Source: Escherichia phage vB_EcoP-U8
Sequence record: MT862763.1
Reading direction: 5' to 3' (one strand)
DNA: 40,294 nt
Position numbers and translations under genes: made by a program. Below, piece by piece: positions 1,471 through 39,668 of this stretch (the first letter of the stretch is position 1; every line of letters starts with the position of its first letter). The notes beneath the pieces were generated by a model that was not told where the DNA came from, ran no database searches, and worked only from the letters and a program-made list of their open reading frames with translations.

Positions 1471-1503
1471 ACGGTTAAATCTCCAGTAGTGTTTATTTAG
1501 GGT

Positions 1504-1546
1504 TAATCATGAAGGCCACGACTTTGAGTCATGACCTTGAGTCTAA
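1504..1546 (-). promoter_or_regulatory. Conserved leader stem-loop element, copy A (candidate RNase III processing site, R1.1 position)
   Basis: Plus-strand TAATCATGAAGGCCAC...ATGACCTTGAGTCTA; RNA can pair AAGGUCAU with GUGGCCUU; same element at 10689..10726 and 34865..34905. Confidence 0.4.
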
Positions 1547-1566
1547 TCCTATAGTGATAGTTTAGG
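1544..1566 (-). promoter_or_regulatory. Phage RNA polymerase promoter (phi1.1 position)
   Basis: RC reads CTAAACTATCACTATAGGATTA; CACTATAGG core as in T7 promoters; upstream of gene 1.1. Confidence 0.75.
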
Positions 1567-2113: not shown

Positions 2114-4795
2114 TTAAGCGAATGCAAAGTCTGAAGACAAGATGTCTTCGATATTCAGTTTACCTTTCTTCGGAAGCTCAGGCAACTTGTCTCTCTGGCT
2201 CTCGTGAAGCTGGTATTCAAACTGCTCGTAGAAGTCAAGCAGCACATCGTTGTCGCGGTAGGTCTCGACCATCGTCTCACGGACTCCACGGAACAGATAC
2301 TCAGCGTCAGCCGGGATGGTCCCGAAGCTATCGTGAATCACTGCGAATGACATCACGCCATATTTGCGGTGCGTGTGTACTACAGTCTTGCGGAGGTGGC
2401 TACCATCTTGTGAGTGGACGAAGTTCGGGCTAATGCCTGACTCCTGCTTGTGCTTGTCCAGCTCTTTCTTCGTGCCTTTGTTGACGGTAGGCTGAAGGTT
2501 GAATGACCCTAAGAACATCAGGTTCAGACGAGTGGTGTCCTTCTTGCGGTATTCCTGCCAGACAGGGAAACCATCAGGTGTGACCCAGTGTACCGGAAGA
2601 CAAGGCTTCAGGATTTCTCCAGTCTTCTTGTCCTTCACTTCAGCAGCAAGCAGCTTGGCAGCACCCTGAAGCCATTTCATCGCGTCAACCGCAGCAACTA
2701 CGGTCACACTCACAGCTTCCCAAATCATCTTAGCCATGAAGCGAGATGCTTGGCTTGGTTCAGTGAACATAGCGCCAGACCCTGAGTCAATCGCTGGCAT
2801 CACGATGTCCTCGTAAACTTGGTCTGCGAAGCCGTACTCTTTCGACCCGTAGGCCAGAGTCATGACCGAACGCTTAGTGACCTTTCGTGACATACCGTAG
2901 GTCAGCCACTGACGGGCAAGCTCTCGTGTCCCCAGCTTGAGACGCTCGGTAATCTCACCAGTTTTCTTGTCCTCGTGAGTTACCATCTCGTTGTCCGTAC
3001 CGTTAACCAGTAGGACTTTAAGCTCCTCCTCAATGCGGTCAGACACGATGCGGTAGATGTCTTGGACCTTACCGGATGGCGTCAGGTTTACTGCATGTCC
3101 ACCGATGTGGTCGCGAAGCATAGCGCTGAAGTGCTGAATCCCAGAGCAGGACCCATCGAACGCTATCGGCAGCGAGCAGGAGTAAGACAAGCCGTGGTGC
3201 ATTACGCCAGCATACTCGAAGCAGAACGCTAGGAAGCAGAACGGAGAGTCTAACTTGCCCCACCACTCAATGCTATCCATCGGTGCCTTGGCAGCAGCCA
3301 TGATGTTGTCGTGGTTATCTTCCACCCACTTGATACGCTCCTCGAAGGTGACTTTATCGACACCCGCGCAGTTTGCACCGTGGACCTTCAGCCATTTGAA
3401 ACCATCAGCACCAATAGGCTTACCGACTGCCAGAGTCAGAAGACCCTTTTGCATGTCGTTACCCTGAGGGTTGAACATCGGCACAGCGTAGACGCGACCG
3501 CGCCAGTCCATGTTATACGGGAACCAGATGGCCTTGAACTGAGAGAACTTGTTCGCTTGGTTGACGATAAAGCTCAGTGACAATCTTCGTGACTGTCTGG
3601 CCTTCTCGCGGCGATAGATACCAGCAGCAGCCTTCTTCCATGCCTTGAGTTCTTCTTCAGTCTCACCCGCATAGTCCTCAGGCTTCAGCGGTTCCATCTG
3701 AGGGATGTCATCAATAGGCGTGTTGTTCAGCTTCTCGACCATGTTCACCACTTCCAGAACCTTCTTGTTCACTTTCCAAGGTGTATTCTGAATGATGTTC
3801 ACAGCGTCATAGACTTCAGGCATATACACGTCTTCGTAGCGTGCTACCGCAGACTTAGACCCTAAGCGAATCAGTGGTAATGGTCTGCGTCCTTTGGCCC
3901 AGTACCCACCGCCTACGACACCAGTCCACGGCTTAGGTGGAACGACGCAAGGCTGGTAGACTGGAGCTATACCCGCAAGGCTGAATCCTCGTTGTGCCAT
4001 CTTCTTGACCCAGAAGTCTGACAGGTGGACCATCTCAACGTCAGCCGCTGCATTGCCAGCACCGTAACGCTTAAGCTCGACCAGTTGTGTGGACTGGATG
4101 ACAATCTCCAGCATCTTGATTCCAACGTGGACAGCCTCGGTCGGACTCCAAGTCCCCCACGCATCTTCCAGTTGGCCTTGCTCCAGCATGGATGCCTCGA
4201 CCGCTTGCATGTAGGCTTTCTTGTAGGACGCCCCGGCCCGCTTATTCAGGTTATCAGCTATCGCCTTCTTGAAGTGCTCTTTCTCCTTGTCACGGATGCG
4301 ACCGAAGCGGATTTCGTCCTCAAGTGTGCGACCTATCGCTGAGGCCATCGGTGTAATCGGTATCCCTTCAGGCTTGACCAGCTTGGAGAGTATGACCTTC
4401 AGTATGATAACCGCAGCAGACTCGCAGGAGATGCGCAAAGAGCGGACCTTTACGGCCTTCTCTTCAGTGCTCAACATGGTGAACGCTACGCTCGGACGAG
4501 AGGTTGACAGCTTCCCGTCTGGACCTTCATGCCACTCCTTGACGGCTTGCGCAATCTTAGGGACCAGAGTCTGCATCAAAGGCTTGGCGACCTGATTGTC
4601 TGCCAGTTCCCCTCGCTCAGTCTGTCTCTCAAGGTTCTTGATGAAACGTCGCTCGCCTTCAGTGTATGCCTCGTGCTCAAGCTGAAGCTGTTTGACTGCA
4701 AGGTCTTGCCCGTAGTGGTCAGCCAGTAGGTTAAACGGCTCAATGGCGTTCGACACATCAGAGAAGTCGTGCTTGTCAATAGAGATGACGCTCAT
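2114..4795 (-). CDS. Single-subunit DNA-directed RNA polymerase (T7 gene 1-like)
   Basis: 893 aa; collinear with T7 RNAP as recalled (MSVISIDKHDFSD..., ...ILSSDFAFA C-terminus, NMDWRGRVYAV, HDSFGT motifs). Confidence 0.97.
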   Translation of the reverse strand: MSVISIDKHDFSDVSNAIEPFNLLADHYGQDLAVKQLQLEHEAYTEGERRFIKNLERQTERGELADNQVAKPLMQTLVPKIAQAVKEWHEGPDGKLSTSRPSVAFTMLSTEEKAVKVRSLRISCESAAVIILKVILSKLVKPEGIPITPMASAIGRTLEDEIRFGRIRDKEKEHFKKAIADNLNKRAGASYKKAYMQAVEASMLEQGQLEDAWGTWSPTEAVHVGIKMLEIVIQSTQLVELKRYGAGNAAADVEMVHLSDFWVKKMAQRGFSLAGIAPVYQPCVVPPKPWTGVVGGGYWAKGRRPLPLIRLGSKSAVARYEDVYMPEVYDAVNIIQNTPWKVNKKVLEVVNMVEKLNNTPIDDIPQMEPLKPEDYAGETEEELKAWKKAAAGIYRREKARQSRRLSLSFIVNQANKFSQFKAIWFPYNMDWRGRVYAVPMFNPQGNDMQKGLLTLAVGKPIGADGFKWLKVHGANCAGVDKVTFEERIKWVEDNHDNIMAAAKAPMDSIEWWGKLDSPFCFLAFCFEYAGVMHHGLSYSCSLPIAFDGSCSGIQHFSAMLRDHIGGHAVNLTPSGKVQDIYRIVSDRIEEELKVLLVNGTDNEMVTHEDKKTGEITERLKLGTRELARQWLTYGMSRKVTKRSVMTLAYGSKEYGFADQVYEDIVMPAIDSGSGAMFTEPSQASRFMAKMIWEAVSVTVVAAVDAMKWLQGAAKLLAAEVKDKKTGEILKPCLPVHWVTPDGFPVWQEYRKKDTTRLNLMFLGSFNLQPTVNKGTKKELDKHKQESGISPNFVHSQDGSHLRKTVVHTHRKYGVMSFAVIHDSFGTIPADAEYLFRGVRETMVETYRDNDVLLDFYEQFEYQLHESQRDKLPELPKKGKLNIEDILSSDFAFA

Positions 4796-4864
4796 ACTTA
4801 AAGTCCTTGTTATTAGTCTTTCACTTAAAGTCTCTTTGGTCTTTCACTTGGAGTCTTAGACCTT

Positions 4865-4887
4865 GAGTCCTATAGTGATAGTTAAGT
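4865..4887 (-). promoter_or_regulatory. Phage RNA polymerase promoter directly upstream of the RNAP gene
   Basis: Plus strand CCTATAGTGATAGTTAAG at 4869..4886; +1 about 75 nt upstream of the RNAP start codon. Confidence 0.65.
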
Positions 4888-4892
4888 CAGAA

Positions 4893-5219
4893 TTACTTGC
4901 ATATCAGCGGGTTAGCGTGGAGATGACTGAAGTCACCATGAGTCGTGTGCTTGATGGTTGACCGTTGGTCTATCGCCTTCCAGCCTGAGACTAAAAGTTT
5001 ACCATCGTCAGTGATTGGTCGTCCACCATACACCAGACACATTAGTTCGGACTTATGGCCCTCAGCCCGGAGTCTTGCTTGCAGTACCCGGTCCCGCTCC
5101 TGCTGTTGACGTGCGGAGTGACTTGACGTTCCGTGACGATACCCGGTAGCCAGTAGGCTTAACATTTGCATGTCTGCGTCCATAGAGTGTACCAGATTAA
5201 TCCCGTATGACTTGTTCAT
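4893..5219 (-). CDS. hypothetical early protein
   Basis: 108 aa ORF in early region; His-rich segments; no recognised family. Confidence 0.45.
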   Translation of the reverse strand: MNKSYGINLVHSMDADMQMLSLLATGYRHGTSSHSARQQQERDRVLQARLRAEGHKSELMCLVYGGRPITDDGKLLVSGWKAIDQRSTIKHTTHGDFSHLHANPLICK

Positions 5220-5593
5220 TACAGTTTGCTCCCAAGTGTTGCTATATCCCAGACGTTCGCTAAGTTACGCATGAATCGTCCGTTAGGTTGACGTACAGTC
5301 CAGCTACCCAGACGTACATATTTGAATTTGTAGACTTTACGCGCTTTGTTGATGTCTCTCACCAGCACGTAGGCGATAAGTCCATAGCCTATGGCTATCA
5401 ATAGTGCGATACTCATAGTCATAAGCCCCATAACAGTTGAGTAAGGACCGGTAGTTTGCAGACTAGAGTAAACATTCCCCACGCTACGAAGCCTGAGATA
5501 GTCCAGATGATTGCAGTGCTCATAGTTAACTCCTATTAATTCAAGTGGTAATCTTTGAGGCCACCTATCAGTCGATGACCTCTCGTCTATCAC
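5219..5593 (-). CDS. hypothetical early protein with predicted transmembrane helix (start uncertain)
   Basis: 124 aa ORF; hydrophobic stretch MSIALLIAIGYGLIAYVLV; a 33-aa alternative-frame ORF with strong SD overlaps near 5430..5531. Confidence 0.3.
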   Translation of the reverse strand: MIDERSSTDRWPQRLPLELIGVNYEHCNHLDYLRLRSVGNVYSSLQTTGPYSTVMGLMTMSIALLIAIGYGLIAYVLVRDINKARKVYKFKYVRLGSWTVRQPNGRFMRNLANVWDIATLGSKL

Positions 5594-5636
5594 TCAGTAC
5601 CCGCCTGTCAGCGTTATGGTCAGGCTGTGATACACG

Positions 5637-5792
5637 TTACTTATCCTCAGCGTGCAAACTGTCGTGTATGCGCTTGCGGCCCTCATAGACCGCTTTCAGG
5701 TGACGCATAGTCGCATCGTGGTTTAATTGCCCGGTCTTGACCATAAGCCGGGCGTTAGTGACGTGGTGCTGGCAGAGACCATAAGTTACCAT
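5637..5792 (-). CDS. hypothetical early protein
   Basis: ATG at 5790-5792 overlaps kinase stop (AGATGGTAA), suggesting translational coupling; 51 aa. Confidence 0.3.
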   Translation of the reverse strand: MVTYGLCQHHVTNARLMVKTGQLNHDATMRHLKAVYEGRKRIHDSLHAEDK

Positions 5793-6310
5793 CTTGATGA
5801 CCTCACCTCTTGCAGCTTGGACACAAGGAAGAAACAATCAACCAGTATCAACTTGCCATCCACAACCCGTACATTACGTGGGCTTATCTCAAACTGAATG
5901 TCTGACCCGAAGTTAGCGCAAGCGTCCAGCGCCATCATAACATCCATCAGGCCCTCCCGCACAGTCTCAGACTCAGACCTGTCGTGTGCATCTTGGAATA
6001 TCTCGTACCACTTGTGATACAGTTCGGCAGGTCGAGAGAATACCGGAGACCGTGAGAAGCAGTCTCGCAACACCTGATAGAGTTGCCATTGGTCATCGTC
6101 TAAATGCGCCTTGAGACCTCGTGTTGGTGGCATGTATTCCATCTCATATGTGCCTACCTCAATCATTTTGACTTCAGGGAACAGTGGAGACTCAGGGAAC
6201 CATCCCCACGCCATACACTCCTTGATTGGGTCTGAAGATACCAGAATCACACGCTTCCCGCAGTCCTTCAGGTAACACTTAGTGAATGCGCCTTTTCCGA
6301 TCAGTTTCAT
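5786..6310 (-). CDS. putative protein kinase, gp0.7-like but short (kinase domain only)
   Basis: 174 aa; N-terminal IGKGAFTKCY glycine-rich loop and VDGKLILVDCFF resemble T7 gp0.7 kinase region; SD AAAGGA 8 nt upstream. Confidence 0.45.
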   Translation of the reverse strand: MKLIGKGAFTKCYLKDCGKRVILVSSDPIKECMAWGWFPESPLFPEVKMIEVGTYEMEYMPPTRGLKAHLDDDQWQLYQVLRDCFSRSPVFSRPAELYHKWYEIFQDAHDRSESETVREGLMDVMMALDACANFGSDIQFEISPRNVRVVDGKLILVDCFFLVSKLQEVRSSRW

Positions 6311-6380
6311 CTTGTTTATCCTTTAGTTAGTGACTATCAGTCAGGCCGCTATCAGTCTAACGACCTGTAGTTAATCACTC

Positions 6381-6635
6381 TCAGTTAGCGAAATAAGGAG
6401 CTGAGACGCCCACTGTAGGACTCACGGTTATCTGCGAGTCTATCAGGTATGTCTCGTTGTCTATACGCACAGTATCGACGCTGTAGTTGCTGAACTGCTT
6501 GCTTGATACCTTGCGCACTACCACACGGTGACGCGCTCCTGTCATCTCTTTAAGCTGAATCCACGCATAACCTTTAGTGTTCACGAATACTTCATTGCGA
6601 TTAGTGATTGTGCTTAAGTGTTTCATAGTGTCCAT
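6381..6635 (-). CDS. hypothetical first early protein (gene 0.3 position; not Ocr-like)
   Basis: 84 aa ORF; start may be the Met at codon 4 (better SD spacing). Confidence 0.45.
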   Translation of the reverse strand: MDTMKHLSTITNRNEVFVNTKGYAWIQLKEMTGARHRVVVRKVSSKQFSNYSVDTVRIDNETYLIDSQITVSPTVGVSAPYFAN

Positions 6636-6804
6636 CCTTTAAGTTAGTGACTATCAGTCAGGGCCTTCAGATGTAGACTCAAAGGCCCTGTAGTTAGTCG
6701 CTATCGGCGCACATTAAGAGTTTATCCAGATTGTTAAAGAGCATTCCCTTCAGTCAGAGGACTTCAGGTAGACCGTTTCAGTGTCGGTCGTCACCGTTGT
6801 TTCG

Positions 6805-6843
6805 ATGTGGTACAGCTTACATCTTATCGTTACTGCTTGTCAA
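6805..6843 (-). promoter_or_regulatory. Candidate host sigma70 early promoter (T7 A2/A3-like architecture)
   Basis: RC reads TTGACA-N18-TAAGCT-GTACCACATCGAAAC, resembling T7 A3 (TTGACA...TACGAT GTACCACATGAAAC) as recalled. Confidence 0.4.
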
Positions 6844-7104
6844 CTACTTTCTGTCATCTGCCTGTTGTTCGTATGACTTATCAGGCTGTCTACTTAACCG
6901 GGATGACCAGGCGTCTTCACTATCCGGTTGTTGCCGTGTCGTGTTGACGGAAGCTATTAGGCCATAGTCTGGACCTATAGTCAATAGGTAATTTTAAATA
7001 ATATTGATTAAGCTATCGTCGGCCCCATGGTGTAAGAGGATGTAGTCTTTGACTAACATGTCTTAGACCTTAAGTCTATATCCTTGTGTCTATTAACGTA
7101 GGTC

Positions 7105-7185
7105 TCTGACTGTAGGTAGCGGCATTACCGATGGTCGATGACTGTAGGTAGTTAGACTGTAAGTAGTTAGACTGTAGGTAGTGAC
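7105..7185. repeat. Short tandem/direct repeats (GACTGTAGGTAG x4, last three at 15-bp period) in genome-end region
   Basis: Copies at 7108, 7140, 7155 (one mismatch), 7170; lies between gene 19 and the early promoters, where T7 carries terminal-repeat and CCTAAAG-type repeats. Confidence 0.6.
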
Positions 7186-7618
7186 TCAAGGTCTGATACA
7201 GATAGAGACTCAAAGAAGACCAATAGTCCCTACCTATCGTCTTTCCCTAAGCCATAGCCACAACCTATCGTTGACCTGAAGTCTTGACCATCGGTCTAAC
7301 CTTATGATAGACTGGGGTAGGGCCTTTGGTCTGGACTAAAAGAGGGCCTATGGGGAGACTTGAGGTTCTTGAACTGTGAGATGTGGTCTCAAACTTTTGG
7401 TCCAAAACTCATCGTCACTACTGTAGACCACAGCCACTGTAGGTCAATGACCGTAGGTCAGGCGACACTAGGATAGACCAATAAGTAGGATGACCCTAAG
7501 TGAGCTTCTCTTAAGGTGTTACCTAAAGTCCTTGACTACAGTAGCTAAGGTCAGTAGAGTAGCGTCAGCTATGAACTGACCTTAGGTCTTGCTTTCGTTG
7601 ATTGTTACCATTACGGCG

Positions 7619-10302: not shown

Positions 10303-10674
10303 TCAGAATCGACGTACAAGCGTCTTCTCTAGGTATGAAACAGCCCGCTGGACACTAGATGTAGTATCTCCCAGTGCGCCAATTGCTGCATTGCACTTGC
10401 GGCATAAAACCCCTCTAATCACCCCAGTGGAATGACAGTGGTCAATACACGCAGAGTCTGTATCTCCTTTCTTCCCACCTACTTTAAGCGGAGTCTTGCA
10501 AATCTCGCATGAGCTTCCCACCGAGTGCATCAGGTCCTCGAACTGTTCAAGCGTGAGACCATATAGGCTCTTTATCTGCGAAATGCGCTTAGTCCTCTTT
10601 CTTCGTTCCTCCCGTTCCTCTCGTAATTTACGAGCAGCTTGAACGTTAGCCTTTATAACATCTTCCGATACCAT
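10303..10674 (-). CDS. Endonuclease VII-family protein (putative homing endonuclease) between gene 18 and 18.5
   Basis: CEICK...IDHCHSTGVIRGVLCRKCN, the Cys/His pattern of T4 endo VII-type proteins; SD AGGAGGTGGT before ATG. Confidence 0.75.
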   Translation of the reverse strand: MVSEDVIKANVQAARKLREEREERRKRTKRISQIKSLYGLTLEQFEDLMHSVGSSCEICKTPLKVGGKKGDTDSACIDHCHSTGVIRGVLCRKCNAAIGALGDTTSSVQRAVSYLEKTLVRRF

Positions 10675-10688
10675 ACCACCTCCTAGTG

Positions 10689-10726
10689 TTAATCATAAAG
10701 GCCACCAATAGATGACCTTGAGTCTA
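10689..10726 (-). promoter_or_regulatory. Conserved leader stem-loop element, copy B (candidate RNase III site, R18.5 position)
   Basis: TAATCATAAAGGCCAC-N-ATGACCTTGAGTCTA immediately upstream of the endo VII-like gene RBS. Confidence 0.4.
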
Positions 10727-10730
10727 ACAC

Positions 10731-10994
10731 TTACTGGACACCATACCCAGTGTCATTATCCTCGGTCGCTGATAGCACCTTGTCGTACTCTCTGTTCAGC
10801 GCCTCCATGTCTGCCAACTGCTTCTCGTCCACCGACACCTTGCTTAACACAAAGTTGTGACGGGCCAGCAGCTTCTCGATGGCGTTGTAGAGCTGGGGCG
10901 AACGCTTAGAGTCATCCCGCAGGTCTTGCAGCATTAGTCGAGCACGTTCGGTGTCCAGCATTAACAGGAACTTCTCTAAGTCCATCTGCGTCAT
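10731..10994 (-). CDS. Terminase small subunit (T7 gp18-like)
   Basis: 87 aa; FLLMLDTERARLML...RSPQLYNAIEKLL matches T7 gp18 as recalled. Confidence 0.85.
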   Translation of the reverse strand: MTQMDLEKFLLMLDTERARLMLQDLRDDSKRSPQLYNAIEKLLARHNFVLSKVSVDEKQLADMEALNREYDKVLSATEDNDTGYGVQ

Positions 10995-11252: not shown

Positions 11253-14108
11253 TTAGCCCCTACCTCCACAACCTTCAAGTTTATCCAGTCGTGTTTCAAT
11301 CCTGTCGCAGCGACGTCGCTGATAAGCGGCCTCCAACCAGAAACACTGATCTGGACGAATGCCCCAGCGATTACCGGCAGCTCTAGTAAGTAGGGTATTA
11401 CCGGTTTCCACTTGACGGGTAACTTCGGTATCGACACCATCAATATTAACAGTGATAACCTCATCAACGAACTCAGGTTCATACTCATCTTCCCACTCGT
11501 CATAGCAAAGCAGACCGAAGGTAGTACCATCCAAACCATGCTTTATGAAGGTATCACGAACTTGCTGGGCAATTACCCCGAAATGCCAACGAGCAGAATC
11601 TTCACCTTTAGCCGCAATAGAAGATAACCACTTGTACGTGATTATCTGCACGTCGCCCCAGGCATCAAGGATATCATCCGAGATTTCAAACGGGTAAGTT
11701 TTTTCACGGGAGTCGGACGTATTAATAGTACCAATCGCTGCGAAGACTTGAGCCACACGTAATGCTGGGTTGCCTAAATTGTAAGCGTTATCTGTGTATG
11801 GACGTAGAGATGTATTATCTATACGCCATCGAATAGTGCCACCTACGGTTTCGGGCGACGGATTAGTAGCAAAACTAATAGACGTAGCACTCTTAAATAC
11901 CGACGATCCACCACCTAAGATAAGAGAATGTGCAGATGCGGAACTTTGTTGATCGAGGACAAGAATCTGTTCTGATTCGGTTAAAGTTTTATTACCGAAA
12001 GCCCTAGCTGCAATTCGACCTTGGGTTAATGCACCAGAGTCAGTATTATTCAGGGTTAAGCGATAAGTCTCTAAACCGATAGCCCCAGTAATTACGGTAT
12101 AACCGGAAGTGTCATAAGTTACACGCACAGTCTTACGGGTAGTTGGCCCAGTCTGATCTATAGAGAAGCTCTGATTATTCAGGTTGCTGATATGAAGCTC
12201 TATCCCAATTGGGTAGGCAACTCCATCCAGATCTGTAAGACCGGTGCTTGACGTATAGATAGTAACTGCCTTCTGCCCAGACAGCCGCATAAAGTCCAAT
12301 ACTGCTGACATTGAAGTCATGGCACTACCGGTCAGAGGGTTATAGAGTACGTCGCCTGCGAGGATTCGTGGATAAACCCCAGAAGCCATCCGAATGGTAT
12401 CGTAACCTGGAGATACCGTTGTCACCGCAGAAAAATCCAAGTCTGGGGAGTTGGAATACTCTTTGGTAATTAGGATCCCATGCGTATACGCATTCGAGGC
12501 GGTTCGGTTGTTATAGATCCATAAGGTGAACACCTCACCATTTGAATAGCAGATGCCCTCATTCTCTATACGAGAAGTCGTTAAGCCTTTAGCGTCCAGA
12601 ACACTAATAAAACCAGTAGGGGGCATTACTGCCTCCACCATTTTGTGCCCGTCAGTGCTGAATGCTTTTACTCCCTGATAATTAGTAGGTGCTTCCACAG
12701 TTGTTCCTGTAATGTAAACACCACCGAATGCCATAATCAGAACACCCGGAGCTAAACAGATTGCTTGTCGCTTAGTTTGAAGCGGCCCGTAATCAGTAGT
12801 AGTTGTCGTGATGTATCCAGCATCATACGGAGAAAATTCCGTGAAACCAGTTAATGCAAATGCGGAGTTGAAGTACGCAATAACATTACGTTGACGGTTA
12901 ATGCCCAACGCTGGGATGGCCTGTTCAACTGCCCACATTCCATTATGGAAGGAGAACTGGTTATACAGACCCACTTGGTGTAACGCTGTATAGCTAATCG
13001 TGGTGCCATAGGTCACTGCTGAGATATCAAACTCAGCTAAGTTACCATCGTAGGATCCAAGGAATAACTTAAGTGAACCATAGTAATTGGTTACGATAAT
13101 CCCCTCGGATACCGCAGAACCATTTACCCCTGTGCCTCCATTATTAGTCTGGAGATACCCTAAGTATTCACCTTCACCTGAGTAAACTACAACGAAACGT
13201 TCCGTAGCTGCGTTGTTACTTGGGCCATATGCAATGTAGATATTGCCATCATCCCCGATACAGAATGACCCCGGATAAATAAACGTCCAGTCAGGGTGCG
13301 CCGCCAGAATAGCATCGTAATCTGGGAATAGTAATGGCAGGTCAAAACTAATTTCTTTTTTATCTGCGCCAGAATTAGCCCAACGGCTGCTCAGGACTGT
13401 AGACAGTGTTTCCCCGTTTTTTGTGCCGATTAAATTTGTTCCGGTTGGTTTTGCAATATCGGCGCGCAATGACGCATCACCAACACTAACCCACGCACCC
13501 AAACCAACGCCGCCAGACGTTTCAGGAGTTGAACCAACAGGCACTGTTTTTGGCAGTCCACCATCCCAGCGGTAATACTCACCATCAGCTTCCCATAGCA
13601 GGACCTCGTTCCATGTTGTAATGTTGATGCCTTTCTCGAAGGAGCGACGGGTAATATAGCCGATTCGACCAGATGCCTGGATATTATCAGCGATTCGTCG
13701 TGCTTCGTCCTCGCTATCCTTAGCGTTGCCAGCAGAGCTACCAGCAGCATCTGCATATTCCTTCACTAAGTCAACCGTTTGGTCTCGACCTTCTTCTGCA
13801 ATATGGATAGCCTGAAGCTCTGAATTTGTCAGGTCACTAGCTGTCAACACTGAGCCATTCCTGAAATCTACCACTAAGTCAGTTCCAGTCTGACGGTGAA
13901 TACGAACTATGTCGAAACCTGATTGGTCAACCAACATCTCAATCATCGTTGGATTAAGGAATCGGTAATCTCGACCAACTTCCAGTACACGGTTCAGGGT
14001 AGGGTTAGAGCTATTCACCAGCGTAACAACAACAAACGTTCTGGATAGGTAGTCGAACTCAATCCTGTACTGAGTGTTTCCTGAAGGGAATTGTGTAATC
14101 GTGGACAT
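11253..14108 (-). CDS. Tail fiber/tailspike (gp17-like N-terminal adapter, divergent distal domain, C-terminal chaperone-like domain)
   Basis: 951 aa vs 553 in T7; first ~150 aa match T7 gp17 N-terminus (FVVVTL, LVVDFRNGSVL); C-terminus contains NTSDSREK...WHFGVIAQQV resembling intramolecular chaperone (peptidase S74-like) domains. Confidence 0.9.
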   Translation of the reverse strand: MSTITQFPSGNTQYRIEFDYLSRTFVVVTLVNSSNPTLNRVLEVGRDYRFLNPTMIEMLVDQSGFDIVRIHRQTGTDLVVDFRNGSVLTASDLTNSELQAIHIAEEGRDQTVDLVKEYADAAGSSAGNAKDSEDEARRIADNIQASGRIGYITRRSFEKGINITTWNEVLLWEADGEYYRWDGGLPKTVPVGSTPETSGGVGLGAWVSVGDASLRADIAKPTGTNLIGTKNGETLSTVLSSRWANSGADKKEISFDLPLLFPDYDAILAAHPDWTFIYPGSFCIGDDGNIYIAYGPSNNAATERFVVVYSGEGEYLGYLQTNNGGTGVNGSAVSEGIIVTNYYGSLKLFLGSYDGNLAEFDISAVTYGTTISYTALHQVGLYNQFSFHNGMWAVEQAIPALGINRQRNVIAYFNSAFALTGFTEFSPYDAGYITTTTTDYGPLQTKRQAICLAPGVLIMAFGGVYITGTTVEAPTNYQGVKAFSTDGHKMVEAVMPPTGFISVLDAKGLTTSRIENEGICYSNGEVFTLWIYNNRTASNAYTHGILITKEYSNSPDLDFSAVTTVSPGYDTIRMASGVYPRILAGDVLYNPLTGSAMTSMSAVLDFMRLSGQKAVTIYTSSTGLTDLDGVAYPIGIELHISNLNNQSFSIDQTGPTTRKTVRVTYDTSGYTVITGAIGLETYRLTLNNTDSGALTQGRIAARAFGNKTLTESEQILVLDQQSSASAHSLILGGGSSVFKSATSISFATNPSPETVGGTIRWRIDNTSLRPYTDNAYNLGNPALRVAQVFAAIGTINTSDSREKTYPFEISDDILDAWGDVQIITYKWLSSIAAKGEDSARWHFGVIAQQVRDTFIKHGLDGTTFGLLCYDEWEDEYEPEFVDEVITVNIDGVDTEVTRQVETGNTLLTRAAGNRWGIRPDQCFWLEAAYQRRRCDRIETRLDKLEGCGGRG

Positions 14109-18493: not shown

Positions 18494-20776
18494 TTACTCC
18501 TTACCAATTAGTACGTTTGCGATACCCTCCAGTGAGACGTCATTGTACATCCCACCGCGCTTCTCGATGTTGGCCTCTCGGTCAGCTCGACGTTTGTCAC
18601 CAGCAGCTTTAGTCCCGACGATACGCGCTCGCTTGTTAGCGTCACGTTCTGCCTGAGCATATGCGGCATCTTGTGCCTTCTGCTGTTGTTCGCGGTAGAG
18701 TTTACCTACAAGTTCTTTATCGTAGCGAATACGAATAGTACCTGTAGCGTCTTGGAGGAAGATAGAGCCGTTCTGTTCAACAACGGACAACTGAGAGTTC
18801 ACTACCCAAGGGTTGGCCTTAATGAGCTGCTTACGAGCGGTGTCGATAATGTCTCGACCAACCTGCCACGACTCTGGGTTATCCCCGACCATAAGCTGGT
18901 GCTTCGACACCATGCCGATGGACTTACCGTCAGAACCTTCAGACTGGAACGTTACGGTGTTCTCATTCAGCCAGCGTTGAGTCTGCTGCGTTGCAGCGTC
19001 AGCGTTACCTGTACGATAGTACCATGAGTCCCAGACCTTACGAGCACTTGAGTCTAGAGACGTAGGAAGACGCGAAAGGTCCTTATTCCGAGAGTCGTTC
19101 TTCAACTCCTGCCACGCCTTGTCTGACTCCATGCGCATCTCACGGCTTTGACTTGCAGCTTGCTTATCAGCTTCAATCATCGTCTGAGGGTCCAGACCCA
19201 TCTTATCCATCTGGTCGAACGTAGAGAACAACTGAGCTTGGTCAGGATACAGAGCAGCGAAACTTGAAGGGTCCTGAGTGTAGGCACGACGAAGAGATTC
19301 GAAGCGTTGCATCTTGTCTGGGTCGTACTGCCCACGGATGACCGCAGCTTGCCACTCACCAGCAGCGTCCTGAGTAAGCGTTTGGAAGGCATTACGGAAC
19401 GGACCGTTGTTAGTGTCAGCTCTTAATAATGCAACCTTCTGTGCGTCCTTAGCAGCCTCAGGGATGTCCATCTGGTCAATCTGCTGTAGCTTAGAAGACG
19501 CATAGTTGTTCATGTCTGAACGCTTGAACTCTCCTGTGGCTTCAGAGACCGGAAGGTCCTCATAGTTGGTGGACACGTTGTCTCCAGCCAGACGTCGCTG
19601 ATAAACTTGGTCAATGACCAGTTGCTTGTTCTGGGTCTGGATTAACTTCGTGTTCTCCTTCGCCTGTTCAGCAGACTTACGCTTGACCGCTTCCAGTAAG
19701 CTGGCTTCGGCATTAATAAGCATCTGACGCTGAGGCGTGAGTTCTTCCCCCGGCTGAAGCAGGTTGTTCTGCTCCTTGAGTTTCTGAATCTGGGCCAGAC
19801 CGATGGTTGGGTCGTCCTGAAGAATCGCAGACTGAACGCCTAACGATAAGTCTTCCTGATACTTAGCCACCAACTTGTACTCGGTACCTTGAGCCTCAAC
19901 CACAGCAGCATTGAAGACGTCAGGGCCTACAATCTCTTCGATGGTAGCATCAATACCGTTAAGGGTGATACGCTCGCCACGGACTTGCTGTAGGAAGTTT
20001 GAGCCTCCTGACTTCTGGATTGCGTCACGGACCGTCTGGGTAATGACCTCTCGTGCTCGCTGGTCCGAAGGGATAGCAGCAGTCGTTAGTCCATCCCGAA
20101 GGTAGGCCATGAAGGTATTTCCAGACTCAGGCGAACGCATCAGGTCCCCATCGTTAAGGAACGAGTTCATCTCAATACGAGTGTTCAACATTGCTGTCTC
20201 TTCAGACTGCTTGCTGAAATACTTATTGAAAGACCCATAGATAGCGATGTTTCGGTCTGTGATGTTATCGTTGAACCCGCGCTGGAAGAACTCGTCGGTA
20301 GGGTTAATACCCGCCTCTTCAGCATAGGACTTAGCGGCGTCCTGAAGTCTCTGGTGGCGATACTCTTCCATGTCCTGACGTGTACGGAACTCACCGTTCT
20401 GAATCTTAACGTTAATCTCGTCATCAACCGCAAAGGCAGCGTTACGGCCCGTCTTGACTCGAAGTGCTTCCATAGCGTAAGGGTCATCCTGATACAGCAA
20501 TGTACCGTTCTGGATAGCCTCACGTCTTTGCTGAGGTGTCAGCTTACGGATAATCTCGTTAGACCGCTCGTCGGCCCGTGTCTTCTCCTCGTCTTTGAAC
20601 TGCTTGTATAATCCAGTACCAGACTCAACGAAGTTGGTTAACGCCCGAGCAAGACCTGAGTCACCAGTTGGAGCCTGAACGCTGGCTGCTTGATAGTTGA
20701 CGGCGATAGTTTTACCCGGAGCCCTGCCACGACCCATAGTCCGATTAGCCAGAGCTGATTCAATATTACTAGCCAT
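18494..20776 (-). CDS. Internal virion protein C (gp15-like)
   Basis: 760 aa; matches T7 gp15 as recalled (ADERSNEIIRKLTPQQRREAIQNGTLLYQDDPYAMEALRVKTGRNAA). Confidence 0.92.
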   Translation of the reverse strand: MASNIESALANRTMGRGRAPGKTIAVNYQAASVQAPTGDSGLARALTNFVESGTGLYKQFKDEEKTRADERSNEIIRKLTPQQRREAIQNGTLLYQDDPYAMEALRVKTGRNAAFAVDDEINVKIQNGEFRTRQDMEEYRHQRLQDAAKSYAEEAGINPTDEFFQRGFNDNITDRNIAIYGSFNKYFSKQSEETAMLNTRIEMNSFLNDGDLMRSPESGNTFMAYLRDGLTTAAIPSDQRAREVITQTVRDAIQKSGGSNFLQQVRGERITLNGIDATIEEIVGPDVFNAAVVEAQGTEYKLVAKYQEDLSLGVQSAILQDDPTIGLAQIQKLKEQNNLLQPGEELTPQRQMLINAEASLLEAVKRKSAEQAKENTKLIQTQNKQLVIDQVYQRRLAGDNVSTNYEDLPVSEATGEFKRSDMNNYASSKLQQIDQMDIPEAAKDAQKVALLRADTNNGPFRNAFQTLTQDAAGEWQAAVIRGQYDPDKMQRFESLRRAYTQDPSSFAALYPDQAQLFSTFDQMDKMGLDPQTMIEADKQAASQSREMRMESDKAWQELKNDSRNKDLSRLPTSLDSSARKVWDSWYYRTGNADAATQQTQRWLNENTVTFQSEGSDGKSIGMVSKHQLMVGDNPESWQVGRDIIDTARKQLIKANPWVVNSQLSVVEQNGSIFLQDATGTIRIRYDKELVGKLYREQQQKAQDAAYAQAERDANKRARIVGTKAAGDKRRADREANIEKRGGMYNDVSLEGIANVLIGKE

Positions 20777-34845: not shown

Positions 34846-34864
34846 GGTTAATCCTCCGTTTAGT

Positions 34865-34905
34865 CTAATCATAAAGGCCACTCTATGTGAATGACCTTTA
34901 GTCTA
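34865..34905 (-). promoter_or_regulatory. Conserved leader stem-loop element, copy C (candidate RNase III site upstream of gene 5)
   Basis: CTAATCATAAAGGCCAC-N-ATGACCTTTAGTCTA immediately upstream of pol RBS. Confidence 0.4.
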
Positions 34906-34908
34906 GAC

Positions 34909-35072
34909 CTAGAAGTCTGTACGCAAGAAGTGGTACATAAACTTCCGGTTAGCTTTCTTCCATGCCTTAGAGTCGAACCTCTGGTCTCCCAGAATGTTGG
35001 ACAGGAAGGTTGCTTCATCGCTCCACCATTTGTACATGAACCGATGGTAGCGAGCTTTAAGTTTCTTGAACA

Positions 35073-35073: not shown

Positions 35074-36831
<1,758 letters not shown>

Positions 36832-36842
36832 TCACTCCTTAG

Positions 36843-36921
36843 TGGCGTCTCCACGGGGATTCGAACCCTAATCGCAATAGGCCATCACGACCCGCCGCTC
36901 TACCGTTTGAGCTATGGAGAC
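36843..36921 (-). tRNA. tRNA-like gene (anticodon arm atypical; possible anticodon CGU)
   Basis: RC: GTCTCCA TA GCTC AAACGGTA GAGC ... TAGGG TTCGAAT CCCCG TGGAGAC G CCA; perfect 7-bp acceptor stem, U8, canonical D-arm, T-loop and CCA; anticodon stem imperfect and region 3 nt longer than standard. Confidence 0.6.
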
Positions 36922-36966
36922 ATTTCTTAATCTCAAATGCGAACAAAGGGACAAGACTCGTGGTCT

Positions 36967-36989
36967 CATCCCTAAGGTGATAGTTTAGC
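36967..36989 (-). promoter_or_regulatory. Variant phage promoter upstream of tRNA-like gene and gene 4
   Basis: CCTAAGGTGATAGTTTAG at 36971..36988 (RC CTAAACTATCACCTTAGG, two changes at -4/-3). Confidence 0.55.
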
Positions 36990-37197
36990 TGAAGAAGCCT
37001 TTCAGTTGCTCGGCTTTCTTGTCAAGACCTTTGGCACGTAGGCCAGCGTCCAGAGACTTGATGCGCAGACTATCCGCTTCCGCAGCAGCCGCTTCCGCAC
37101 CTTTAGCCGCAGCAGATGCGACTTTTCGTTCCACACTCGCAGCACGAGAATAGCCACGCACAACCAGACGACCCAGAAATTCAATAAGTTTAATCAT
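36985..37197 (-). CDS. hypothetical Ala/Lys-rich small protein
   Basis: 70 aa ORF between amidase and gene 4. Confidence 0.5.
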   Translation of the reverse strand: MIKLIEFLGRLVVRGYSRAASVERKVASAAAKGAEAAAAEADSLRIKSLDAGLRAKGLDKKAEQLKGFFS

Positions 37198-39329: not shown

Positions 39330-39668
39330 CTACTTGGAGTCATAGCACTTACCTTTGTGCAGGTCGAATAGCTCCTGATAGAAGGCTGCTTTGTTCAAGT
39401 CCTTCTCCATAGTAGCCATCTCGGACTTCTTACCAGCCCGGAGTCTATACTTCAGGACGTTACCCATGCAGAACCCACGGAACTCACTCACAGTCATTGA
39501 CCGTGCGATAATCTCAATGGATTCCACGCCATCAAAGACCTTATAGTGGGACGGCTTGCGGACGCCATCAATTTCTTGTAGTTTGTTACCTACAAGTTTA
39601 CCAACGTGCGGGAAGCGGTCGTCACCATTACATGCTTCACAGTATGTGGTGCTATCACAGTATGTCAT
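39330..39668 (-). CDS. gp1.7-like nucleotide kinase (short form)
   Basis: KPSHYKVFDGVESIEIIARSMTVSEFRGFCMGNVLKYRLRAGKKSE matches C-terminal part of T7 gp1.7 as recalled; 112 aa vs 196 in T7. Confidence 0.75.
   Translation of the reverse strand: MTYCDSTTYCEACNGDDRFPHVGKLVGNKLQEIDGVRKPSHYKVFDGVESIEIIARSMTVSEFRGFCMGNVLKYRLRAGKKSEMATMEKDLNKAAFYQELFDLHKGKCYDSK

Follow-up and report, generated by a model that had tools for sequence, protein, structure and literature searches.

A direct repeat in the early region of a K1F-like phage probably marks the 3′ arms of two RNase III processing sites

A direct repeat that precedes two early genes of Escherichia phage vB_EcoP-U8 most probably (at roughly 85%) represents the 3′ arms of two hairpins for host RNase III in the polycistronic early transcript, which would make these hairpins the counterparts of R0.3 and R0.5 of phages T7 and T3. 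The window analysed here, the whole 40,294-nucleotide stretch of record MT862763.1, is a complete genome of a K1F-like (Kayfunavirus) member of the T7 group, which is read on its minus strand and is circularly permuted. Positions 5700-7300 match 392 phage records, the best of which are Escherichia phages of the genus Kayfunavirus with roughly 90-95% identity. Position 7300 of the window corresponds to about base 82 of linear Kayfunavirus genomes, and thus the left genome end lies near window position 7380 and the repeat falls within the early region, 700-1050 bases from that end. Judged by their architecture and partly by their sequence, the two hairpins belong to the RNase III processing-site family of T7-group phages, a textbook kind of element that is here found in a K1F-like phage, where it is largely unannotated.

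The preliminary description had reported a 26-nt direct repeat, and both copies are indeed present on the minus strand, beyond what shuffled sequences yield. Specifically, a 21-nt core is exact at positions 6325-6345 and 6642-6662 (minus strand) and occurs exactly twice in the window, whereas 100 dinucleotide shuffles give an expectation of 0 even when three mismatches are allowed. With a one-base indel, the identity extends through AAAGGAT, such that 28 of 29 bases match. Copy 1 ends 9 nt before ATG 6310 of the 174-aa open reading frame (ORF), and copy 2 adjoins ATG 6635 and ends 9 nt before ATG 6626. The parts of copy 2 are the last 2 nt of an upper stem, the 3′ side of an internal loop, the 3′ strand of a lower stem, a spacer and the Shine-Dalgarno sequence AAGGA.

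A GGGCCTT...AAGGCCC hairpin had also been noticed just upstream of copy 2. This hairpin exists (6688..6661), but it overlaps the first two bases of the copy and constitutes the upper stem of the same element rather than a separate feature. Beyond what had been described, copy 1 also has an equivalent hairpin of different sequence (CAGGTCGTTA...TAGCGGCCTG, 6366..6341), a second, outer helix is present at both copies in which the repeat pairs with sequence upstream of the hairpin, and four further elements of the same family reside elsewhere in the window.

The hairpins at copy 2 (site A) and copy 1 (site B) span 55-62 nt, with an upper stem of 10-12 bp, an asymmetric internal loop of 4/5 nt and a lower stem of 8-9 bp (Table 1). 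At site A, the lower stem is formed by UAGCGACUA and UAGUCACUA, and the upper stem by CAGGGCCUUU... and ...GAAGGCCCUG. At site B, AGUGAUUA pairs with UAGUCACU in the lower stem and CAGGUCGUUA with UAGCGGCCUG in the upper stem, the sequence of which is unlike that of the site A upper stem. The internal loop (5′ ACUA / 3′ ACUGA) is common to both. Folded in isolation, site A yields -25.6 kcal/mol (z -6.3) and site B -23.3 kcal/mol (z -5.1), with 0 of 200 shuffles as stable in each case, and the two-helix hairpins also form when the sites are folded in a 161-nt context. The distance from the hairpin end to the start codon is 17 nt at site A and 16 nt at site B. Both sites represent a sub-type, GGCC(C)UGACUGAUAG, whose loop-proximal sequence is nearest to that of T7 site R1.

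Table 1 Features of the window, and extended variants of site A in relatives
Feature	Coordinates	Strand	Description
Repeat copy 1	6320..6345	-	Reads CCTGACTGATAGTCACTAACTAAAGG; 3′ arm of site B plus leader and Shine-Dalgarno of 174-aa gene
Repeat copy 2	6636..6662	-	Reads CCTGACTGATAGTCACTAACTTAAAGG; 3′ arm of site A plus spacer and Shine-Dalgarno of first early gene
Site A, RNase III-type hairpin	6634..6707 (core 6704..6643)	-	Upstream of first early gene; positional analogue of T7/T3 R0.3
Site B, RNase III-type hairpin	6317..6384 (core 6381..6326)	-	Between 81-aa and 174-aa genes; positional analogue of T7/T3 R0.5
Site C, third early-region RNase III-type hairpin	5532..5599	-	Model R1 36.9 bits, model R2 36.3 bits; fold z -3.2
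Site D, T7 R1.1/R1.3-like hairpin	1490..1555	-	CUCAAGGUCAUG...GUGGCCUUCAUGAUUAACC; model R1 42 bits, model R2 51.3 bits
Site E, RNase III-type hairpin	10674..10736	-	Model R1 47.2 bits, model R2 53.3 bits; fold z -5.3
Site F, RNase III-type hairpin	34852..34915	-	Model R1 47.1 bits, model R2 45.7 bits; fold z -5.2
First early gene	6381..6626	-	81 aa from ATG 6626 (84 aa from ATG 6635); K1F gp0.2 homologue; phrog_10124, E 1e-39
174-aa early gene	5786..6310	-	phrog_11084 (function-unknown PHROG), E 2e-94
Single-subunit RNA polymerase	2114..4795	-	893-aa ORF
Candidate host sigma-70 early promoter	6814..6843	-	TTGACA-18-TAAGCT; relaxed scan; upstream of site A
Second candidate host sigma-70 early promoter	6956..6984	-	TTGACT-17-CCTAAT; relaxed scan only
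tRNA-like element	36843-36921	-	Rfam tRNA 36.7 bits; ARAGORN tRNA-Thr (CGT)
Extended site A variants	L006 831-927, L008 784-879, L013 726-821, L018 1603-1699, L024 2107-2204, L057 8535-8631		

Kinship with the T7 and T3 sites is evident from both alignment and covariance models. MAFFT brings sites A and B into register with T7 sites R0.3, R0.5, R1, R1.1 and R1.3, and the AGG...CCU at the loop-proximal end of the upper stem is invariant across these sequences. A common two-helix structure pairs 91% of cells in alignment A1, as opposed to 30-48% after a shift of the 3′ partner by 1-3 columns, and 11 pairs carry double changes. Covariance model R1, which was built from the alignment of sites A and B with the five T7 sites, recovers three T7 sites outside its training set (13850-13914, 18498-18585 and 36813-36878) with a wide score gap to noise; these we take to be R4.7, R6.5 and R18.5. 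When applied to the first 7 kb of T3, the same model finds all five stem-loops annotated 'RNase III recognition site' and nothing else at E<=1. Its scores for sites B and A are 66.4 bits and 59.9 bits, respectively.

Because model R1 had been trained on sites A and B, the model was rebuilt to remove this circularity. The resulting model, R2, derives from eight T7 and five T3 sites only; model R1, whose training had included window sites, was used to lay out the alignment, but all parameters come from T7/T3 sequences. Model R2 scores site B at 46.9 bits (E 7.5e-9) and site A at 35.4 bits (E 6e-6), and the best non-site match in the window reaches 11.1 bits. Rfam holds no family for T7-group RNase III sites.

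Sites A and B are like R0.3 and R0.5 of T7 and T3 in their strand and in their place in the genome, which is downstream of the host promoters at the left end and between early genes. They also have in common with the T7/T3 sites the two-helix hairpin, the asymmetric internal loop and the loop-proximal AGG...CCU pairs. In contrast, the internal loop of most T7/T3 sites is 5′ ACUC / 3′ UUAUGA, the loop region is CUACAGG / CCUGACUGAU in sites A and B but CUCAAGG / CCUUUAUGAU in most T7 sites, and the pair that closes the upper stem is C-G here and A-U in most T7 sites. Among T7 sites, only R1 has both the loop features and the closing C-G of sites A and B. Two further differences concern the genome rather than the hairpin: two sites with an identical 21-nt 3′ arm occur in this phage, unlike in T7/T3, and the T7 R1-type site before the RNA polymerase gene is missing. 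A search ahead of that gene produced no match with either covariance model and a fold z of only -1.3.

Both models identify the same number of sites in the window, namely six, all of which lie on the minus (transcribed) strand and between ORFs. Site C precedes a group of small membrane-like ORFs that starts at ATG 5522. Site D, which is very similar in sequence to T7 R1.1 and R1.3, is positioned directly downstream of a phage-promoter-like motif (the reverse complement of CCTATAGTGATAG) that is present in about ten copies in the window. Near the right end of the genome, site E lies directly upstream of a 123-aa ORF (10303..10674), a location that presumably corresponds to that of T7 R18.5. Site F is located in the DNA-metabolism (class II) region. 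The loop of sites D, E and F is of the T7 type, GGCCUU(U/C)AUGAUUA.

Also consistent with a functional RNA structure is the pattern of sequence change in relatives, which we sampled in about 20 genomes (5 loci found by the 174-aa protein and 17 stretches by an exact-arm scan). In K1F, site A is sequence-identical at 704-777, and site B resides at 1027-1094. Across 54 distinct sites from viral-contig loci (alignment A3), 93.9% of cells are paired, compared with 23-47% in slid controls, although the alignment was fitted to the covariance model, which favours the structure. Double changes are seen in 12 of 19 pairs, and both stems covary. G-U pairs, which would be A-C mismatches on the opposite strand, are frequent among these sites, and reverse-strand matches remain below 15 bits; the structure thus belongs to the RNA and to the transcribed strand. 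Entropy per alignment column is high in both flanks and low across the hairpin, with its minimum in the internal loop. Sequences like site B are present in 155 phage records, whose hosts include Escherichia, Salmonella, Enterobacter, Citrobacter, Klebsiella, Yersinia and Cronobacter, among others.

The preliminary description had named absence of the repeat from relatives with the same genes as the observation that would speak against it. Instead, both copies are present in K1F and in other relatives that have a gene between the sites, and exactly one is present in relatives without this gene. The exactness of the repeat probably has two reasons. Within this sub-type of site, constraint would be strongest on the loop and on the lower stem's 3′ strand, and the sites would be common junctions of gain, loss and exchange of early-gene cassettes. 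Over all sites, the 3′ arm differs little from the 5′ arm in conservation (0.62 versus 0.85 bits per column), and the corresponding comparison within the sub-type is biased by the way the sequences were selected. In the records examined, the site is left without annotation, overlaps with an adjacent CDS labelled 'hypothetical protein' or, in ASO2B, is taken for a terminator, and it is probably mis-annotated or omitted systematically in this genus. Some relatives carry a variant of site A of 96-98 nt, in which the upper stem is lengthened by an insertion of about 30 nt (…GTCTACCGCGAGACGGGCTTGACTTGAGCG…) that looks structured itself.

The biochemistry of the T7 sites offers a model for what these hairpins may do. 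In T7, host polymerase produces an early precursor of about 7,000 nt that RNase III cuts co-transcriptionally at five sites, which gives rise to mono- and dicistronic mRNAs, and optimal translation of some of these requires processing (PMC4858673). Internal loops restrict RNase III to one phosphodiester, and the 3′ hairpin that remains shields the upstream RNA from exonucleases (PMC1540722). By the same logic, host RNA polymerase would transcribe the early region of the present phage leftwards in window coordinates, as synteny and weak promoter matches suggest, and each site would then fold into a helix of about 20 bp broken by the asymmetric internal loop, in agreement with the folding and covariation results. 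RNase III would bind this helix, and the loop would restrict it to a single cut on the 3′ side, predicted from T7 at about U6656^G6655 in site A and about U6339^G6338 in site B.

All that we propose for the cut itself at sites A and B would hold by analogy. The predicted positions were derived by alignment to T7 sites R0.3, R0.5 and R1, for which we take the cut positions to be 890, 1468 and 3138; RNase III sites are not among the features shown for T7 records NC_001604 and V01146. If this model is correct, the upstream product of each cut would retain the upper-stem hairpin at its 3′ end and so be protected from 3′ exonucleases, and the downstream product would begin inside the repeat, with a 28-29-nt leader (GAUAGUCACUAACU(U)AAAGGAU...) that bears the Shine-Dalgarno sequence. 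The expected outcome is a monocistronic message of about 317 nt for the 81-aa gene, which would end in the upper-stem hairpin of site B, and a separate message that would start 28 nt before the ATG of the 174-aa gene.

Two in-frame ATGs could serve as the start of the first early gene, one at 6635 and one at 6626, and a Shine-Dalgarno sequence, AAGGA, lies 8 nt upstream of the latter. The start at 6626 is supported by a PHROG match that covers residues 4-84 and by a 246-nt homologue in ASO2B (ASO2B_002, annotated 'similar to gp0.2 protein [K1F]'), and the 84-aa reading is probably three codons too long. The stop codon of this gene, TAA (6383..6381), lies at the start of the site B model match, immediately 5′ of the lower stem. 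The product of the 174-aa gene had been described as kinase-like, a label that finds no backing in a BLASTP comparison with T7 gp0.7 (E 0.62), in Pfam (no family) or among PDB sequences (no meaningful match). PHROGs are negative as well, and the sequence comparisons thus give no support for a protein kinase of the T7 gp0.7 type. The ocr-like anti-restriction gene of K1F is missing from this window, and the 174-aa gene is found in its stead.

Several other elements of the early region and its surroundings deserve mention. The candidate promoter at 6814..6843 corresponds by position to a homologous promoter that is annotated at 558-587 in GA2A, and a stricter promoter scan did not list it. Both this sequence and the second candidate match the consensus poorly and are weak candidates for host early promoters. 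A phage-promoter-like motif, TTAACTATCACTATAGGA, is present about 75 nt upstream of the RNA polymerase start ATG 4795 (4796-4894, minus strand), with no RNase III-type hairpin between the motif and the gene. The T7 record shows no phage promoter in the interval from phiOL (405) to gene 1, and the phage studied here may be able to transcribe its own polymerase gene from this motif. Repeats resembling GACTCAAGGTC / GGTCTCTGACTGTAGGTAG form short arrays and scattered copies at 7092-7212, 7432-7464 (plus strand), 363-395 and 39482-39514. They lie near the inferred genome end (about 7380) and may be terminal-repeat and concatemer-junction repeats as in T7.

A tRNA-like element between a 70-aa ORF and the primase/helicase gene, shortly downstream of the phage-promoter-like motif at 36956-36988, is the sole gathering-score match in an Rfam scan of the window. 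The 201 nt that contain it (36800-37000) match 161 phage records, 154 of them at >=95% identity, and 33 of the 161 cover at least 80% of the region. Among the 12 matches listed, 4 have a tRNA annotated at this element (tRNA-Thr, tRNA-Pseudo, tRNA-OTHER and 'tRNA'). tRNAs are uncommon among T7-like phages. The RNase III site R3.8 of T7, after a promoter and before gene 4, presumably occupies the same place, and the element may be a tRNA-like processing signal.

Hairpins between early genes could also be rho-independent terminators or attenuators. Indeed, in the record for ASO2B (MZ726794), the upper stem of that phage's own site B bears the label 'rho-independent terminator; discovered using WebGeSTer' (L065 718-753, equivalent to MZ726794 1060-1095), and the upper stems are G+C-rich. 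However, a U-run is absent after both hairpins, where CUGACUGAUAG comes next, and a terminator scan of 6200-7500 found none. Termination at these places would cut off the downstream RNA polymerase gene, which the phage needs, and the outer helix and the conserved internal loop would be left without a role, such that we give this explanation almost no credence. A shared function in translation, be it a conserved leader and ribosome-binding site (RBS) or the operator of a translational repressor that co-regulates the two genes, is likewise very improbable. It would account for the continuation of both copies into AAAGGAU with an equal 8-nt spacing to the ATG, and similar leaders precede several other genes of relatives. 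Yet the sequence downstream of ...CACUAAC is gene-specific in relatives, the leader of the ocr-like gene is quite different and longer, the 81-aa gene often has AACGGAU, and the part that is conserved and covaries is the hairpin, not the RBS. The 'shared translation-initiation or processing module' of the preliminary description therefore divides in two: its processing half stands, borne out by the tests for an RNase III site, and its RBS half finds little in its favour, as the unit conserved in relatives ends at ...GTCACTAAC and the leader and Shine-Dalgarno sequence vary with the downstream gene. That the two leaders are alike in T(T)AAAGGAT reflects the genes to which they belong rather than the repeated element.

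When positions 5200-6710 of the window are compared with relatives (L002-L006, L008, L009, L036-L042, L050, L055 and L061), the early region on the minus strand appears as a mosaic of small cassettes parted by RNase III-type sites, and at least six families can supply the gene that follows site A. About nine unrelated genes, each with a leader of its own, are joined to the 3′ side of the arm CCTGACTGATAGTCACTAAC in relatives, and similarity downstream stops right after ...CACTAAC. Where B-type sites follow different genes, similarity at the 5′ side starts at the first base of the lower stem. Early-region maps reveal that each optional early gene has its own site, with the number of sites ranging from 2 to 4, and three gene families (the ocr-like, 81-aa and 174-aa genes) are each found behind both types of 5′ half. 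Loci L005 and L002 have one site (A) that leads directly into the 174-aa gene through the leader TAAAGGATAAACAAG; they equal the window minus the segment between the repeats, which is the exact product expected of a crossover between the two copies. Moreover, the 20-nt arm (6326-6345 and 6643-6662, minus strand) contains stop codons in all three frames, a property of only 0.3% of its shuffles. The three frames are likewise closed by each of the six whole sites, and upstream genes terminate inside the 5′ arm. Such three-frame stops would suit a junction next to which any gene fits.

On this comparison of sequences, the RNase III sites also mark cassette boundaries and probably act as recombination linkers. 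We tentatively go one step further, with a proposal whose chances we rate somewhat below even, that in K1F-like and related Studiervirinae the RNase III hairpin serves as a portable cassette junction of about 55 nt, whose near-identical copies provide homology for the insertion, deletion and exchange of early (anti-host) genes. Such a unit would supply three-frame stops, a processing site and a fresh mRNA 5′ end. The same observations could be taken to mean that the repeats are mainly recombination linkers for early-gene cassettes, as are the promoter-early stem-loops (PeSLs) of T4, with RNA processing secondary or absent. That one arm is joined to so many unrelated genes, that three families occur behind both 5′-half types, that each optional gene brings its own site in varying number, that L005 and L002 match the crossover product and that homology breaks at the two ends of the hairpin all favour this account. 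But a pure DNA linker requires no hairpin, whereas the two stems of these elements covary and contain strand-specific G-U pairs; their T7 homologues are RNase III cleavage sites; and sites D, E and F, which belong to the same family, are found at fixed places outside the variable region. We consider it unlikely that linkage is the main role, and the linker function is best seen as an added consequence of processing sites, not as an alternative to them.

The comparison with PeSLs is nevertheless instructive. In T4-type phages, PeSLs are mobile regulatory cassettes through which modules are shuffled, and they are likewise short conserved stem-loop motifs beside small, variable and mostly unknown early genes (PMC2839356, PMC4122927), and the ends of indels and replacements between close relatives fall in the motif, as they do here (PMC2839356). 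In relatives of the present phage, too, a conserved motif lies at the ends of indels and replacements. A PeSL combines a sigma-70 promoter with a terminator hairpin (PMC2839356), whereas the element described here has neither and is taken to be an RNA-processing signal. A scan for promoters and terminators within the sites gave no match, so the composite that characterizes PeSLs is not present. The literature searched contained nothing relevant on RNase III sites in K1F or Kayfunavirus, or on deletions between RNase III-site repeats in T7. Of our findings, only the cassette-junction aspect has some novelty.

Once the RNase III-type sites are recognized, the transcripts of the early region can be mapped, a likely start codon can be assigned to the first gene, and it becomes apparent which early genes form separate messages. 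K1F is in use as a therapeutic phage and as an engineering chassis. For phage engineering, the sites represent natural places of insertion that spare the expression of neighbouring genes. If the repeats do act as cassette junctions, the 26-nt repeat in this genome would be either an active substrate through which the 81-aa gene can be lost or a scar left when that gene was gained, and the process would constitute an RNA-processing counterpart of PeSL shuffling in T4. The cassette-junction reading, should it hold, would explain by a simple mechanism how T7-like phages come to have a mosaic early anti-defence region in an otherwise conserved genome.
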